A stretch of 64,000 bases of DNA, taken from contig CAWJGT010000023.1 in the NCBI GenBank assembly GCA_963842525.1, forward strand, positions 352,001 to 416,000, given 5' to 3'. The notes beneath the pieces were generated by a model, which was not told where the DNA came from, ran no database searches, and was given only the letters and a program-made list of their open reading frames with translations. The translations under genes were made by a program, and so were the position numbers. Each line of letters starts with the position of its first letter. The first letter of the stretch is position 1. Origin of the DNA: an uncultured Holophagales bacterium (GTDB lineage Bacteria > Acidobacteriota > Thermoanaerobaculia > Multivoradales > UBA5704). Shown here piece after piece: positions 41,744 through 47,734 of the stretch.

Positions 41744-42220
41744 ATGACCGAAGCGATGACCGAAGCGATGACCGAGCCGGTGGACGAGCAACTGCAGGCG
41801 ACGCCGAGCGCCGAGGCGCGGGCTGACCAGCCGCAGCCGCTCGAGCTGGGCGAGTTGATGGTGGCGCTCACCGCAGACGATGTCGAGCGCAGCTTGCACT
41901 TTTATGCCGATGGATTGGGGTTCACCGTCGAAGAGCGCATGGAGAAGGACGGCAAGCTGCTCGGCGTGATGCTCGTCGCCGGGGCATGCCACCTCGGGCT
42001 GTCGCAGGATGACTGGGGAAAGGGGCGCGATCGGAAGAAGGGGATCGGGTTCCGCATGTTCGTCGACACGATGGACCAGGACCTCGACGCGCTGGCGGCG
42101 AGGTTCCGCGAGCAGGGCATCGAGGTCGATGGCCCCAAGACCGAGTCGTGGGGCGAGCGGGCGCTGACGGTGGAGGACCCGGACGGGTTCAAGCTGACCC
42201 TGAACCGCAAGCCTTCCTGA
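41744..42220 (+). CDS. VOC/glyoxalase family protein
   Basis: DVERSLHFYADGLGF, SWGERALTVEDPDGFKL; start lies in a 12-bp ATGACCGAAGCG repeat. Confidence 0.85.
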   Translation: MTEAMTEAMTEPVDEQLQATPSAEARADQPQPLELGELMVALTADDVERSLHFYADGLGFTVEERMEKDGKLLGVMLVAGACHLGLSQDDWGKGRDRKKGIGFRMFVDTMDQDLDALAARFREQGIEVDGPKTESWGERALTVEDPDGFKLTLNRKPS

Positions 42221-42509
42221 GCCGGGCCGACTCTCACGCCGAGGGCGCTCGTCGGCACCGTGCTCCTCGTCGCCGCGGCGCTCCGCAGGGTCCCCGTCGC
42301 CTGGCCGCAATGGGCCAAGGCCGCGGCCTACGGAATCGGCACGATGGCCACTTTCTGGTTCCTGCAGAGAGAGCCGCCTCGCTGATGTGATCAGCGGTTT
42401 CTGCCTGCGCGCTGGCTCGCCATGGACTGGAGGCCGCACTCTTTTAGGTGAGGGCCACGTGGGCCCTCACCCGAACGATGCAGCGTTCTCCCTATGGAGG
42501 ATCGGCGAC

Positions 42510-42686
42510 GTGAAAAAACAGCGGCCTGTCAAGAAACTACAGCTCAGCAGCGAGACCCTGCTCCGTCTCAACCAGCTCCCGCTCGTGCAAGGCGGAGGGT
42601 TCGCGGGCACCCTGACCTTCGAGGGGACCTGCGAGAACTCCCTTTGCCCTGTTTGCACGGAGCTGTGCACCGGCGACACGCAGTAA
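42510..42686 (+). CDS. Orphan lanthipeptide-like precursor 3 (58 aa)
   Basis: GTG start with GGAGG RBS; MKKQRPVKKLQLSSETLLRLNQLPLVQGG-GFAGTLTFEGTCENSLCPVCTELCTGDTQ. Confidence 0.7.
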   Translation: MKKQRPVKKLQLSSETLLRLNQLPLVQGGGFAGTLTFEGTCENSLCPVCTELCTGDTQ

Positions 42687-42727
42687 CGGAGGCACTCATA
42701 GATGTAGATATTGATGGAGGAAAACGA

Positions 42728-43006
42728 ATGCGACTCACCTACTCGAACCCGTCCATCCGGCGTCTGGCGCTCGTGCTCGCGCTGGCGCTCGCCTCCTCGG
42801 CACTCGTGCTGCTCGTTCCCGGTACCGCCAGCGCGGCCTGCGCTTACGATTTAGAGGTCCGGACCTACTACTACAGCGACCCGGAGCTGACCAACTTCGT
42901 CGGCCAGTGCTTCAAGGCCTGTTGGTCGGGGACGACCTGCAGCGGCGAGCAGACCGAATACTCCCAGATCGTGAGCGTGCGTATGTGCCCCCCGCTCTGC
43001 CAGTAG
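42728..43006 (+). CDS. Small secreted Cys-rich protein (DUF6289-like)
   Basis: Signal peptide; YYSDPELTNFVGQC..AC.....CSGEQTEY. Confidence 0.65.
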   Translation: MRLTYSNPSIRRLALVLALALASSALVLLVPGTASAACAYDLEVRTYYYSDPELTNFVGQCFKACWSGTTCSGEQTEYSQIVSVRMCPPLCQ

Positions 43007-43096
43007 CCACCGGGCGCGGACCGGGGCGGGTGCCAACGTTGAGAGCGCCCCGCGTCCTACGCCCATAGGTGCCAGGGGAACATCCGGGGAAGGCCG

Positions 43097-43190
43097 CGGG
43101 AAGCGGCGGACAAGCTCAAGGCTGGCGATCGCAATGCCCGGTTTCCGACAGGGAGCTTTCCACCTCATCTGCCGTTCGTCAGCGATCAGC
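43097..43190 (+). pseudogene. Possible C-terminal remnant of a Y1/RAYT-like transposase
   Basis: Reads REAADKLKAGDRNARFPTGSFPPHLPFV, resembling the FP.G.FPP tail of such transposases (from recall only). Confidence 0.4.
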
Positions 43191-43224
43191 CTCCCCAAAC
43201 AACTCTTGACGGGACCTCTATCTT

Positions 43225-43930
43225 GGAGAGCTTGTATCGTCTTGGCGGAGCTTACGGCGTCTCCGGGCAAGCTTGCGTTGTCTGGGCGGAGCCTGCGTTG
43301 CTTCAGCGAAGCTTGCGCCGGCTCGTCGCGAGCTTCTGGCGCCTTGGCGGAGCTTGTGTCGTCTCGGCGGAGCCTGCGGCGTCTCAGTGCAAGCTTAGGT
43401 TGTCTTGGCGGAGCTTGCGTTGTTTCAGCGGAGCTTGCGCCGGCTCGTCGCAAGCTTGTTTCGTCTTGGCGGAGCTTGTGTCGGCTTGGCGGAGCTTGCG
43501 GCGTCTCAGTGCAAGCTTACGTTGTCTTGGCGGAGCTTGCGTTACCTCAGCGGAGCTTACGCCGGCTCAGCGTAAGCCCCGCTGGCCCGATGTAAGCTCC
43601 GCTACGCCAGTGTAAGCTTACATCGGCTCAACGTAAGCTCCGTCAGGCCGTTGTAAGCTCCGCTGGCTCAATGCAAGCTTACGCTGGCTCAGCGTAAGCT
43701 CCGCTGGCCCGATGTAAGCTCCGCTACGCCAGTGTAAGCTTACATCGGCTCAACGTAAGCTCCGCCAGGCCGTTGTAAGCTCCGCTGGCTCGATGCAAGC
43801 TTACGCTGGCTCAGCGTAAGCTCCGCTGGCCCGATGTAAGCTCCGCTACGCCGGTGTAAGCTTACATCGGCTCAACGTAAGCTCCGCCAGGCCGTTGCAA
43901 GCTCCGCTGGCTCGATGCAAGCTTACGGCG
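43225..43930. repeat. Mirror-symmetric array of 35 AGCT-centred cores at 20/20/21-bp spacing (61-bp and 122-bp higher-order periods)
   Basis: Cores at 43229, 249, 270, 290, 310, 331 ... 880, 900, 920; left arm GCGGAGCTTRC, right arm GTAAGCTCCGC. Confidence 0.95.
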
Positions 43931-43950
43931 GCTCAGTCTGGGACCTCGGA

Positions 43951-43976
43951 CGGGGCGGGGGAAAAACCCCGCCCCG
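43951..43976. terminator. GC-rich hairpin downstream of the 44005-44520 gene
   Basis: CGGGGCGGGG-GAAAAA-CCCCGCCCCG, a perfect 10-bp stem; no clear U-tract. Confidence 0.45.
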
Positions 43977-44004
43977 CCGCAGGGACTTGCAGGAATCCGG
44001 GGCC

Positions 44005-44520
44005 TCAGCCCAACGGTGCGAGCGCTCGGGCCAGCGCGATCCTGCCGCTGTGCTCCAGGGCGATCCCGCCAGCCGCGTCGTACAGCCAGGAAAGATCCCG
44101 GGGCGCCGAGAGCAGCGCGTCCACGACGTTCAAGGCTGCGGCCACCTCCTCGTCGAAGAGCCGGAGGTGACCGACCCGCTCGCCGGAGCGGAAGAGCGGA
44201 AAGCCGTGCTCGTCCGGGTCCGGGCCAAGCCGGTACCGGCGCTCCCGGCCCGTGCCGGGAAGGATCGCCGCGGCGAGCTGCGCGACGTCGAGACGGTTGA
44301 GGATGGCGAAAGGTGCGTCGCGGTCGAGGCTCTCGCCCTCGCGCAGCAGGGCGAGCCAGCCGGACCTGGTGGCTTCGAGACGCCACGGCCCGGCCGTGTC
44401 GGCCTCGCCCGCGGTCAGGGGCTCGTCGCGCTCGGCGAGGAGCGCGAGGTACTCGGAAGTGAAAACCTGGGTGGGAACAGCAGCGGACGGACGGGTGCTA
44501 CCATCAACAGAGTTGCGCAT
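44005..44520 (-). CDS. Hypothetical protein (171 aa)
   Basis: ATG with AAAGGAG RBS; GC3-rich codon use; ERDEPLTAGEADTAGPW motif; no recognised domain. Confidence 0.75.
   Translation of the reverse strand: MRNSVDGSTRPSAAVPTQVFTSEYLALLAERDEPLTAGEADTAGPWRLEATRSGWLALLREGESLDRDAPFAILNRLDVAQLAAAILPGTGRERRYRLGPDPDEHGFPLFRSGERVGHLRLFDEEVAAALNVVDALLSAPRDLSWLYDAAGGIALEHSGRIALARALAPLG
44496..44504 (+). promoter_or_regulatory. Extended -10 promoter element, antisense to the 44005-44520 gene
   Basis: TGCTACCAT (TGn-TAnnaT) inside codons 6-9 of the opposite-strand gene. Confidence 0.5.
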
Positions 44521-44592
44521 GGGACGTTGACTCCTTTGCGTGACAGGGCTCGGGTGAGCTTCCGACTCACTCGGGCCCGCCTTCCTGGTTTT
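44511..44592 (+). ncRNA. Putative cis-antisense sRNA (~80 nt) covering the start codon and RBS
   Basis: Follows the -10 element; contains anti-RBS CTCCTTT; ends in a 13-bp hairpin (44546-44578) fully paired only on the + strand via two G-U pairs. Confidence 0.5.
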
Positions 44593-44778
44593 CAGCTCTG
44601 GCCGGAACCGCTCCGGCCGCATCAGCCAAAGACACTGCGGGTCCTTTTCAGATCCGTCTCGGGATTCCTGTCGCCTCACCTCCTCTCGCGGGTTGTTGCG
44701 CTGTACTACTGCCCCCGAGAGTAGGAGAAAAAATAGCGGGAGTCAATACTTCCCGCGCACTTCTCAAGACTCAGAGAT

Positions 44779-47734
44779 TCAGAGGTCAGAGCGAAATGGG
44801 GACAGCACAACCCGAAATCCGATGAAGTCGACCCAGGCGTCCAGGTCGAACCTGATGCGGGCGGCACAACGGACATCCTCGGAGCTGAAGTAGAACGCGC
44901 CGCCACGCAACACGCGGAGGCCGTCTACCGAGAGAGCCTCGCGCCGGGCCCGCTCCTTCGACCGAGCCGGGTAGGGATATGGCCTATACAGGCTTCGAGT
45001 CCATTCCCAGACGTTCCCGCTCATCTCCTCGCAACCGTACGGGCTCGCTCCTCCCGGAAAGCAACCCACAGAACTCGGGGTTCCGATCCCGCTCTCGTCG
45101 AAATTCGCCTGCTCCGGGTCGGGCTCCTTCCCCCACGGGTAGATCCGACTCTCGGCACCGCGAGCCGCCTTCTCCCACTCCGCCTCCGAAGGCAACGTCA
45201 CCCCCAACCGCCCCGTGGCCAACCCCTCCCAGAAGTCGTTATCCTCCGCCAGACTCTGCACCCGGACCGCCGCGGTCTCCCGCAGGCGCTCGTCCAGCCA
45301 GCCGCAATACGCCAGGGCGTCGTGCCAACTTACTCCAGTGACCGGGTTGGTCGAGGGACCCGCCAAGCTCCAAGGATCGGCTGTATACGAGGTCTGCTCG
45401 ATGAAGCTCCGGAACTGCTGCACCGTCACAGGAAACCGCGCCAAGTAGTACGCCAGTAGCTCGACTTCATACGCCTCATTCCCCATCAGAAACGATCCGG
45501 CCGGGACGTGGACGAAGCCCAGGAGCGGCTCCTGCGGCAGGAACCACGCCTCCGCGTTGAACCGCGGGTCCCCGAGACGGCTCAGGACTTCACCGGCCTG
45601 CGCCCGCTGGACCGGCGCTGCATTTTCACCACGCATCGTCCGCAGCAGCGCTTTGACTACCATCTGTCGGCAGGCCGGCGTCACACCGCCAGATCCGGCG
45701 TCCACGACCGCACGGCCCGCCAAAATGACCGCCTGCCCCGGTGTGCCGGGCGCCTGGTCCAGAAGCGACTGCACCACTGCGCTCGCCGCTTCGTCCCGCC
45801 GCTGGCCGATCCCCAGGTACCCGATGGTCAGGAGGATCACCTCGTGCCAGGGCGCCTCGTCCACATGCCCGGCCAGCGCCTCCACCACCGGCCCGATCTC
45901 CTGCTGCCCGAGCTGCGCCAGGGCGACCGCCGCCAAGTACTCCTGGAAGGTCAGGTGAATGAAACCGTACTGGCGGCCGCCCCGGTCGAGGAGCAGGGCG
46001 GCGTGGCCCCGCACGTCCTCCAGGAACTGCCGGGTCGCCCGCTCCGGGTCCTGCTCGCCCCGCTCCCGGTAGATCCGTTCCAGCTCCTGATGCAGGTCCC
46101 ACTCCTTGACCAGGCCCACGCCCGGCGACGTCCGGTGCATCCAGAGCGCCAGCGGGGCCAGGATCTTCAGGGTCTCCACCAGATCCAGGTCGCGGGCGGC
46201 CCGGCCCTCCAGGCTCCGCACCAGGTTCCAGCTCCGCAGCAGCGTTTCCACGTAGGTCTGGTACAGCTCGACACGCCGCTCAGGAAGGGTCACCCCTTGC
46301 CGTTTCATCAGGGCCAGGATGGTCAGCAGCAACGGGTTCGCGGCGAGCGACCGCACCCCAGGGTTGCGCACGGCGGCGAGCAGCTCTTCCTGCTCGCGCT
46401 GCGCGTCGAGGGCGGCCTTCTTCGTGTCCCCCGCCGCCGCGCGCTCCAACGCGGAGGTCCACTTCGCCACGAAGGCCTGAATCTCCCTGTCGTCGAAGTC
46501 CACCAGCGTGCCTTCGACCAGCCCTTCGGCGGCAGGCCGGACCTCCCGGTAGCCCACGATACGGCTCGTAAGGACAAACTTGTTGCCCTGCTTGCGGTAG
46601 AGCTCGTAGAAGTCCCGGACCCGCTCCACCACGGTATTGCGCAGGCCCAGGTCCCGGACCTCGTCCAGACCGTCCAGGAGAAACAGGACGCCGCCCCGAG
46701 GGGAGCTCGCGCTCGAGGAGGGCGTCGAGGGGCAGGTCGAGGCCCCGATGCTCCTGGTGGTAATGGGGAAGGAAGCGGCCGAGAGGGATGTCCTTTTCGG
46801 CAAGGGCATTGGCATAGGCGGAAAGCGGGAGGAGCACCGGCAGGCGGTCTGCCAGGCCCAGAGCCTCGCCCTGGGCGAGAGTGAGGGCCAGGTATTTGAG
46901 AAAGGTGGTCTTTCCCGATCCCGGATCTCCCAGGAGGACGAGGCCGTCGTGGCTCTGCAGGAGATCCAGGACCGGCTGCGGCTCGCTGAGCTTCCGGCCG
47001 ATGGCGTCCGCTTCGTCCTCAGTGGGCTTCCTGCCGGCCAGGCGGAGACGCTCCCAGGTCTCACCCTCGGGCGTCTCCAGGCGGGCCTTCAAGGGAACGT
47101 ACATCTCCAGCAGGGGGAGCCGGATCGGTACGCGGTCCGAGACGCCGAAGCCCTTGAAGTCCAGATAGCGGTAGCGCTCGACGAGGTGGGCGAGGTACCG
47201 CTCCCGAACCTGGACGAGGTCGGCGGCCGGGGCTCGGCGGGAGCCCTTCGGCTTGCGGTTTCTCCTCTTCTCGAGATTCCGCAGAGCCGCCACCACCTTG
47301 GTCGCCAGAGCGTCGGGATTGGCGTCGAAAAAATCGACAGTCGCTTCCTCCCGGACCCGCTGGCGGAAACGCTCCAATCGCTCGTAGAGCTCGTCCGGCT
47401 CGCGCAGGCTCCGCGGCAGCGGGAAGTCCTCCGCGGACAGGAAGATGAGCCGGGGGATTCCCGCGGCACCGGCGGCCTCGTATTCGCGCTCCGTGAAGGA
47501 GGTCTGTGAGCCCGGAGGTGAGCTGCCGTAAAGGCCTCCAACGAGCCCCACGAGCACGTCACACTCGGCGACCTTTTCGCGGCAAAGAGCGTCCGGCACC
47601 TGGTCGCGTGCCCCGAAGTCCTCCATCCGGACGCACGTGCAGTCATCGCAACGCTGGATCGCGCGGTACACCGCATCGCGGTAGGGACCGAGATCGCGGG
47701 CCGTGGAGCTGAGGAAGACCTTGATGGTAGACAT
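44779..47734 (-). CDS. DUF4062 + NACHT NTPase + FGE-sulfatase (C-type lectin fold) protein, frameshift near 46695
   Basis: [22 protein letters not shown]; Walker [10 protein letters not shown]; Walker B LLDGLDEV; NPLLL; [12 protein letters not shown]; [28 protein letters not shown]. Confidence 0.9.

Follow-up and report, generated by a model that had tools for sequence, protein, structure and literature searches.

SymR, an antisense RNA of ~77 nt, has its promoter inside the 5′ end of symE. RNA-OUT of IS10 is a stable stem-loop antisense RNA of ~70 nt that is likewise transcribed from just inside the gene; by pairing with the mRNA over the ribosome-binding site (RBS) and start codon, it limits translation when many copies are present. 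The SymE family has an AbrB-like fold (swapped hairpin), and SymE and RalR are the known exceptions to the small hydrophobic toxins of type I toxin–antitoxin systems. In the parts of the literature consulted, to which all citations here refer, SymR is described as overlapping the symE RBS and start codon and as acting mainly on translation, and SymE as a non-hydrophobic toxin of 113 aa (PMC4147584). Here, a locus of comparable layout was analyzed in a 64,000-nucleotide stretch of an uncultured Holophagales bacterium (the window; assembly GCA_963842525.1, contig CAWJGT010000023.1, positions 352,001 to 416,000, or G000:C23:352001-416000 in our numbering, the source genome G000 comprising 9.95 Mb in 34 contigs). 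It consists of a minus-strand gene for a 171-aa protein of an orphan family (family A) and, opposite its start, of a predicted small RNA gene.

The same sources name type I systems for Proteobacteria, Firmicutes and Tenericutes plus one cyanobacterial candidate (PMC12390103), single out SymE as the one type I toxin that is found beyond a single phylum, and place type I-like cis-antisense systems in very few phyla, where they are hard to find as searches start from the toxin (PMC12390103, PMC5367252). In the consulted part of PMC5367252, Acidobacteria are mentioned for type II families only, and a search of the literature (supplements excluded) on antisense RNA or type I toxin–antitoxin pairs in Acidobacteria and Thermoanaerobaculia found no description of the present RNA or protein family. 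Our analysis indicated that gene and RNA form a self-contained module, in which the antisense RNA most likely represses translation initiation of the family A gene (a probability of about three in four). The cis-antisense layout itself is already known; the new element, as judged by sequence comparison, is a portable antisense cassette that is common to families without detectable homology.

A predicted RNA gene opposite the start of family A

In a mechanical list of open reading frames (ORFs), the target frame begins at a GTG (44679) and encodes 224 aa. Paralogs and homologs, however, all start at the position of the ATG (complement of 44518–44520) with M-R/K-x-x-x-D/N-G/x-S-T (alignment A1), so the target protein was taken as 171 aa from the ATG and not as the 224-aa GTG form. 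On the opposite strand, TGCTACCAT sits within codons 6–9 (D-G-S-T) of this ORF, and its sequence matches the definition of an extended -10 element, that is, TGn directly before TAnnnT with a dispensable -35. The RNA predicted to start from it was matched by a covariance model (R1, described below) at G000:C23:396511-396594 with 57.5 bits, and it folded to -43.0 kcal/mol (z -4.83; 0/200 shuffles as good), compared with -29.6 kcal/mol (z -2.32; 5/200 shuffles as good) for its complement. Stem-loop 2 pairs completely over 13 bp, two of them G-U, on the plus strand only, the gene strand having two A-C mismatches, and the sense-strand Shine–Dalgarno sequence (SD) and AUG of family A lie within a weak local stem. 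The tail after stem-loop 2 is GCCUUCCUGGUUUUCA in the target; the family consensus is GUUUU directly after the stem, and many loci read GTTTTTG. A cmscan of positions 42000–46000 on both strands against Rfam 15 gave 0 matches at E ≤ 1, SymR, RNA-OUT, Sok and Sib included. The features of the locus are collected in Table 1.

Table 1. Features at and beside the target gene, in window positions (CDS, coding sequence; MFE, minimum free energy; TRF, Tandem Repeats Finder).
Feature	Position	Strand	Basis
CDS of family A (acidic orphan protein, 171 aa)	44005..44520	-	ORF, homologs, paralogs
Extended -10 of the antisense RNA, TGCTACCAT, no -35	44496..44504	+	sequence; same offset in foreign loci and paralogs
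Predicted ~84-nt cis-antisense small RNA	44511..44594	+	R1 match, fold
Stem-loop 1 of the small RNA, with complements of start codon and SD and a variable loop	44512..44544	+	MFE fold, RNAalifold consensus
SD AAAGGAG of the family A gene, inside the region covered by the antisense RNA	44531..44537	-	sequence
Stem-loop 2, terminator-like hairpin GGGCTCGGGTGAG-CTTCCGA-CTCACTCGGGCCC	44546..44578	+	sequence, fold, covariation
SD-like box GAGAGGAGGTGAGG near the predicted leader 5′ end	44674..44687	-	paralog alignment
Candidate sense promoter TTGACT (44741-44746)-17 nt-TACTCT (44718-44723)	44718..44746	-	alignment with paralog promoters
G+C-rich hairpin CGGGGCGGGGG-AAAAA-CCCCGCCCCG between stop codon and array	43951..43977		sequence; partly in minus-strand terminator scan
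Tandem array, periods 20/41/61/122, halves carrying the unit in opposite orientation (GCGGAGCTTGC, GCAAGCTCCGC)	43228..43935		TRF

The element recurs in the paralogs of the same genome. An AGGAG-type motif precedes their ATG, TGnTAnnnT is kept on the antisense strand of codons 6–9, and 12/16 paralog leaders have an equivalent of stem-loop 2 at 23–26 nt upstream of the ATG. Read on the antisense strand, these stems are unbroken over 13–15 bp, with G-U pairs at fixed positions (A-C on the sense strand), and are followed by a T-rich tail; their sequences diverge and the pairing is retained. The antisense strand folded better than the sense strand in 14/16 leaders, the two exceptions being near-identical distant copies that do not have the element. 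RNAalifold on the 12 paralog sequences added a 5′ stem-loop holding the complements of the start codon and SD.

R1 (85 positions, 26 pairs) was then built from these 12 in-genome paralogs only and applied to loci that had been fetched by protein alone, with matches counted at E ≤ 0.01. It matched 68 of 80 metagenome loci, 67 of them at the gene start (the match of L115 lies elsewhere), and 74 of 80 genome loci, one of which carries a second match, so that R1 lay antisense over the start codon in 141/160 family A loci from other genomes and metagenomes. Among 18 distant homologs from other genera two loci were matched, one of them (L016) at the gene start. Every match at a family A gene was antisense and ended ~10 nt within the CDS.

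The alignment of the 75 genome matches (A5) was used to quantify covariation. In A5, 97.6% of 1849 cells pair, compared with 84.7 ± 0.5% in shuffled alignments, of which 0/500 reach that value, and with 36–57% in slid controls; 17/26 pairs have changed on both sides, with 207 compensatory cells. Both helices contribute: helix 1 (12 pairs) has 8 pairs changed on both sides and 96.9% of cells paired, helix 2 (14 pairs) 9 and 98.3%, respectively. The strand is indicated by the same cells, as 97.6% pair in the antisense compared with 80.3% in the sense direction, and G-U outnumbers A-C by 330 to 9 in A5 and by 323 to 9 in alignment A4. Consistently, a count that used no model found an unbroken stem of at least 11 bp on the antisense strand of 81/149 genes with ≥130 nt of upstream sequence, versus 6/149 on the sense strand.

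The promoter element is fixed as well. Among the 76 unique foreign loci that have an unbroken antisense stem, TGnTAnnnT occurs at a single offset in 70 and TAnnnT in 75, and at any other offset in at most 2/76. The residues encoded there vary (DGST, NGST, DRST and others), while T, A and T are kept, which indicates that the constraint acts on the DNA. The A/T-ending codons that the -10 box requires (GAT, GGT, TCT) also appeared to stand out in the G+C-rich gene. In R1, loop columns carry low and stem columns high information; variable loops on conserved stems are expected if each copy recognizes its own mRNA.

What comparison among the copies shows is the predicted RNA gene together with its fold, the strand on which it lies and its constant position relative to the ATG. 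A preliminary description of the locus had proposed an extended -10 at 44496 inside the first codons of the opposite strand, an RNA of ~80 nt over the ATG and the AAAGGAG RBS, and a hairpin fully paired on the plus strand only; the -10, the size and position of the RNA, and the hairpin with its two G-U pairs were all recovered here, the RNA in 12 paralogs as well as in the foreign loci. The hairpin covaries across homologs, promoter and hairpin are conserved in the main clade of family A, and the symE/symR-type layout that the description invoked gains support from the conserved promoter, the two helices and the strand.

Probable antisense control and the family A protein

In the paralogs, sense promoters of the form TTGACA-N17-TAcAAT stand ~185–215 bp before the ATG (~115–150 bp in two copies) and are followed by a GAAAGGAGGTG box. 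The candidate sense promoter of the target is a weak match, which a simple scan did not call, and it would imply a 5′ untranslated region (UTR) of ~190 nt. Foreign loci have TTGAC-N17-19-TAnnnT in 95/131 cases, between -280 and -80, with modes near -160 and -220/-230. GGCGGTA (as in TAGAATGGCGGTA) was further observed directly after the sense -10 in several paralogs, for example in the leaders G000:C9:640894 and C3:809995, and may be a conserved G+C-rich discriminator or start region.

A GAAAGGAGGTG-like box was found at about -150 to -170 in 8/13 aligned paralogs, ~25–35 nt into the predicted leader, and GGAGG is enriched at -160/-150 of the foreign loci (12 and 10/131, versus 1–6 in adjacent bins). 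An upstream ORF starting at this box was considered and rejected by eye, since the sequences read show no start codon at a usable distance. The box resembles a STAB-SD mRNA stabilizer or a ribosome standby site. STAB-SD of Bacillus likewise has a perfect SD-like GAAAGGAGG box that stands far upstream of the RBS, early in a long leader; the resemblance is purely one of sequence and position, and the box here is confined to the long-leader subclass.

Put together, a sigma-70-type promoter ~200 bp upstream would yield a long-leader mRNA for the 171-aa acidic cytosolic protein, while the opposite strand would yield the ~84-nt RNA from the extended -10 embedded in codons 6–9. The complementarity of the RNA to the mRNA would be perfect across ~50 nt of leader, the SD, the start codon and the initial ~10 nt of the CDS, and the RNA would fold into two stem-loops, the second serving as its terminator. 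As the two promoters are convergent and the RNA ends before the sense start, the transcripts would overlap only over the initiation region. Pairing there most likely keeps ribosomes from binding, leads to cleavage of the duplex, or both, and protein synthesis would be confined to occasions when the mRNA outruns the RNA, by the same logic as in symE/symR-type type I pairs and IS10 RNA-OUT. Antisense control as such is strongly supported by the comparison of loci; transcription of the RNA, repression by it, and a harmful or dosage-sensitive nature of the protein are inferred in addition.

The presumed target of this control is a real, conserved gene for what is predicted to be a soluble, cytosolic orphan protein. 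Searches at E ≤ 0.01 recovered 81 family A homologs of about 160–190 aa, within a full range of 114–235 aa, and a 41-sequence profile hit 722 clusters at E ≤ 0.001 among 1.84 billion representatives; the conserved motifs are RDEPxTAxEADxAGPW and LPGTGR. The named relatives come from metagenome-assembled genomes of Thermoanaerobaculia/Holophagales (Acidobacteriota), and 8/201 sampled genomes of the class (G000 included), all within three taxonomic families, have family A. The source genome itself carries 19 copies by single-sequence search and 17 by profile search, with 40–62% mutual protein identity among the paralogs.

Known families and folds gave little for this protein. Pfam returned 0 families at E ≤ 0.1 for the target (SymE_toxin included), NCBIfam EutK alone (E 0.017; score 15 bits, cut-off 218), and PADLOC, PHROGs and the ESM Atlas no usable match. 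A PDB profile search with the family gave a single match at E 1.2. The AlphaFold2 (AF2) model of the target protein (predicted local distance difference test, pLDDT, 80.3; predicted template modeling score, pTM, 0.59) consists of two beta-beta-beta-alpha units followed by a helical hairpin; Foldseek against PDB and BFVD found nothing at E ≤ 0.001, and VIA-align (wide) gave a top Z of 4.7, to YaiA over 51 residues, with no AbrB-type entry among the rows shown. A YegP/DUF1508-like beta-beta-beta-alpha repeat was considered and dropped, its basis being only Foldseek rows at E ~1. The target has an isoelectric point (pI) of 4.98, a grand average of hydropathy (GRAVY) of -0.14 and no membrane segment in the AF2 model, and the family has a median pI of 5.14 (range 4.23–6.53). 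The expectation of a soluble-looking 171-aa protein without recognizable domain thus held in Pfam, NCBIfam, PADLOC, PHROGs, Foldseek and VIA-align, whereas the suggestion of a nucleic-acid-binding family has become less likely with these pI values and with the acidity of the further proteins described below.

Several observations weigh against antisense control of a harmful protein. At the target, a simple consensus scan of 43000–45500 called no sigma-70 promoter, the antisense promoter has no -35, a simple terminator scan did not call stem-loop 2, and the T tract begins ~10 nt past that stem. The cassette is not universal in family A, with a gene-start match in 1/18 distant-homolog loci, and 19/160 closer loci have no match at the start, several of them being too short upstream; as the distant homologs are mostly unmatched, the cassette belongs to the main clade of family A and not to the whole family. 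A4 and A5 were fitted to the R1 model, which biases them toward pairing. Lastly, family and fold searches recognized no catalytic, nuclease or other toxin fold or family for family A, and the guarded proteins, at 96–200 aa, are acidic and soluble, compared with the usual membrane-active type I toxins. Taken alone the target locus offers weak features, which are lifted above chance by the 12 paralogs and 141 foreign loci; and the excess of G-U over A-C, which argues for a structure working on the antisense strand, is hard to explain by model fitting.

Antisense control plus toxicity would make the locus a true type I pair, in which the 171-aa protein arrests growth and the RNA is the antitoxin, and membership of that class hangs on the toxicity of the protein. 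In its favor are the many diverged copies that each keep a dedicated repressor RNA, the near-consensus sense promoters of the paralogs, and a layout equal to that of symE/symR (PMC4147584). The copies are also solitary, as in chromosomal type I families: beyond the gene and overlapping ORFs, no conserved protein partner was found within ±6 kb of the own loci (largest shared cluster 3/17) or within ±3 kb of the foreign loci (largest neighbor cluster 17/144). On the other hand, the sources describe almost all known type I toxins as small and hydrophobic (PMC4147584, PMC12390103), and the typical profile of <60 aa, hydrophobicity and a transmembrane helix does not describe the 171-aa target protein, for which the family and fold searches found no nuclease or other toxin fold or family. 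We regard a type I pair as a substantial possibility, with the odds somewhat against it.

Other genes behind the cassette and the neighboring array

The cassette is not specific to family A, a point absent from the preliminary description. R1 has 22 matches in the source genome, of which 12 are the training paralogs and ten lie antisense over the starts of other ORFs, which the family A protein search had missed. These ten comprise six intact genes and one broken copy of a family B (111–122 aa; 8 matches in a protein search of the genome), one gene each of a family C (136 aa) and a family D (96 aa), and one degenerate family A copy. At E ≤ 0.001, R1 was found in 34/61 sampled genomes of the order (G000 included), with up to 29 matches per genome, and the one model recovers >200 loci across this order of uncultured soil Acidobacteriota; one genome, G020, has 13 matches and no family A gene. 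The ORFs under further matches, read for one match in each of 29 genomes and for 34 more in G020, G065 and G201, belong to families A, C (the commonest), D, E and one more, with a few broken frames.

In most partner ORFs read, the 5′ end of the small RNA lies 10 nt past the ATG. Their N-terminus follows M-x-D/S-x-x-x-S-T because those codons spell the -10 box on the other strand. Apart from this start, hhalign among families A–E gave probabilities of at most 13.7%, with short aligned stretches at the N-terminus only (the alignments of B, D and E being small), and families B, C and D drew no Pfam match. The AF2 model of family C is a helical bundle (pLDDT 88.5), for which no PDB match was found at E ≤ 0.001. 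The guarded proteins have no membrane segment, and the intact partners are all acidic, with pI 4.2–6.6. The shared, portable unit, as delimited from these alignments, runs from the predicted leader hairpin over the RBS and ATG to about codon 10, and it heads at least four other small acidic protein families without detectable homology to A.

Two local arrangements were observed in addition. A family B fragment at G000:C3:1052376-1052537 (minus strand; 76% identity over residues 13–66) lies ~1.6 kb upstream of the family A paralog C3:1050286-1050789, so guarded genes of different families can be close neighbors. At G065:C3:3069255-3070194, two R1 matches stand 850 bp apart.

In G020, the cassette is tied to what may be a mobile unit. 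Twelve cassette-headed family C genes read in this genome are ~64–89% identical, and a repeated unit has the order family C gene, 329-aa RadC-like JAB protein (PF04002, E 7e-27) and 400-aa tyrosine integrase (PF13356, PF00589). The copies, L276 (G020:C28:59600-65700) and its sisters L277–L279, were compared over 6.1 kb, of which three of the four have 2.6 kb in common and the fourth shares ~1.2 kb. Just beyond the L276 unit, a PIN-like ORF and a small upstream ORF were noticed by eye in the translation. In another 7 of the 29 one-per-genome loci, RadC or integrase matches stand no more than 1.5 kb from the cassette. The cassette might be a control device of mobile elements comparable to IS10 RNA-OUT/RNA-IN or FinP/traJ, by which the RNA throttles the first gene and thereby the operon, with the solitary family A copies as remnants or cargo. 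This we consider unlikely, as the family A loci, the target included, have no integrase, RadC or conserved neighbor next to them (on this contig the closest integrase match, ~27 kb from the target, falls beyond the window), and as paralogs of only 40–62% identity are not recent transposition copies.

A tandem array whose edge lies ~70 bp past the target stop codon had led the preliminary description to suggest a possible joint system and, as a check, to ask whether homologs co-occur with such arrays. Gene and array would then be one functional unit, for example a protein-binding platform or a structured 3′ UTR. TRF found 263 arrays of at least 150 bp in the source genome, 180 of them with periods near 20/21, 41/42, 62/63 or 84, which amounts to about one phased array of this 21-bp class per 55 kb. 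The units are unrelated between loci and often hold short palindromes. At foreign loci, where arrays of at least 120 bp were counted (mostly of period 21 or 42), one lies within 600 nt after the stop codon in 22/112, of which 21 start 5–255 nt past the stop, and one lies 150–700 nt before the ATG in 9/123. Occupancy after the stop codon was 20/128 and 22/124 in the 100–300 nt bins, 1–3 of ~105 at 600–1400 nt and 0 of ~95 beyond 1400 nt, that is, a drop from 16–18% to 0. Similarly, the cassette loci of G000 have an array within 1 kb after the stop in 5/22 (at 4–245 bp) and within 1 kb before the ATG in 3/22 (at 178–290 bp), compared with 3.5% of random 1-kb windows of this genome, a null that ignores the intergenic location of arrays.

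The enrichment in position, over 0–2% further out, supports the proposal in part. About 75–80% of the loci have no array, the array sequences differ, and only 8/180 arrays of the class are near a cassette. Words of the target unit cluster at five other places in the genome, none near a paralog, in a test that is blind to arrays of other sequence. Neither the small RNA nor the CDS shares words with the array beyond the cross-locus control, and an acidic protein would be an unlikely DNA binder. The array as sponge or target of the small RNA was also tried and rejected, the longest words shared with the own leader or RNA having a median of 7, compared with a cross-locus mean of 7.4. The array, then, reflects a real positional tendency, being neither necessary for the module nor specific to it, and a single gene–array unit is quite improbable.

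The least probable alternative, by a wide distance, is that the hairpins belong to the sense leader (as a thermometer, riboswitch or protein site) or to a DNA repeat (repetitive extragenic palindrome, REP; miniature inverted-repeat transposable element, MITE; or attC-like) with no antisense RNA, for which speak the multicopy nature of the element, the hairpin in the complement and the weak sense stem around SD and AUG, but which is contradicted by the G-U excess (the sense strand would have 2–4 A-C mismatches per stem), the T tract after the stem on the antisense strand only, the -10 element at a fixed distance in antisense orientation, and a fixed register with the ATG unlike that of a REP or MITE.

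Further features were noted around the target. The hairpin between stop codon and array is followed by no T tract on either strand. The upstream neighbor at 44779-47734 (minus strand) resembles a single STAND-type gene broken into two frames, with DUF4062 and a NACHT P-loop encoded by ORF 46280-47734 and the remaining NACHT part and a C-terminal FGE-sulfatase domain (E 1e-43) by ORF 44779-47064; the frames overlap by ~780 bp, which suggests a frameshift (pseudogene or assembly error). FGE-sulfatase-like ORFs also lie near 2 other family A paralogs. On the other side, a small ORF just past the array (42494-43006, plus strand) has a weak DUF6289 match (E 0.019, under cut-off), and 41744-42220 (plus strand) is a glyoxalase/bleomycin-resistance-type gene (PF00903, E 2e-14).

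Significance and comparison with known systems

Here the RNA is the conserved and searchable part, unlike in searches that start from the toxin, and its model leads to at least five orphan protein families whose sole common feature is the guard cassette. A defined predicted RNA with its promoter and targets offers a handle on the function of abundant 'hypothetical proteins'. The locus is also an unusually clean case of codons that double as a predicted promoter, with N-terminal residues dictated by a -10 box on the opposite strand, and it links predicted antisense control with RadC–integrase units and with the many 21-bp phased arrays of the genome. Should the guarded proteins be toxins or effectors of mobile elements or defense, the phylum would have here its first type I-like system, one whose family is defined by the RNA antitoxin rather than by the toxin. 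More tentatively, the loci may be members of one hitherto undescribed superfamily of antisense guard cassettes in Acidobacteriota, a ~105-bp homologous unit in which the gene for a repressor RNA of ~85 nt is intertwined with RBS, ATG and the opening ~10 codons, which came by recombination or descent to stand before at least five small acidic effector families without detectable homology, the lead gene of the RadC–integrase unit included, which reaches 20–30 copies per genome, and which tends to adjoin 21-bp arrays.

Among the described systems, IS10 RNA-OUT is similar in being an antisense stem-loop RNA over the RBS and start codon. It differs in that the present locus has no transposase, no terminal repeats that were seen and no Rfam match, that family A is old and diverged (40–62%), and that a link with mobile elements exists here only for other partner families. 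The Ibs/Sib, Ldr/Rdl and hok/sok pairs, as portrayed in the consulted parts of the sources, resemble the present loci as diverged solitary copies, each with its own cis-antisense RNA over the initiation region (PMC4147584, PMC5367252), but theirs are hydrophobic peptides of <60 aa, whereas those here are acidic, soluble proteins of 96–200 aa. The closest likeness in layout is to symE/symR, with a short cis-antisense RNA opposite the 5′ end of the gene, over RBS and start codon, and a large, non-hydrophobic cytosolic protein (PMC4147584). Still, the two have no sequence relation (by Pfam for the protein and Rfam for the RNA), and the target protein is acidic and of unrecognized fold. The host here is a member of the Acidobacteriota, and one homologous RNA cassette serves at least five families without detectable homology to one another.

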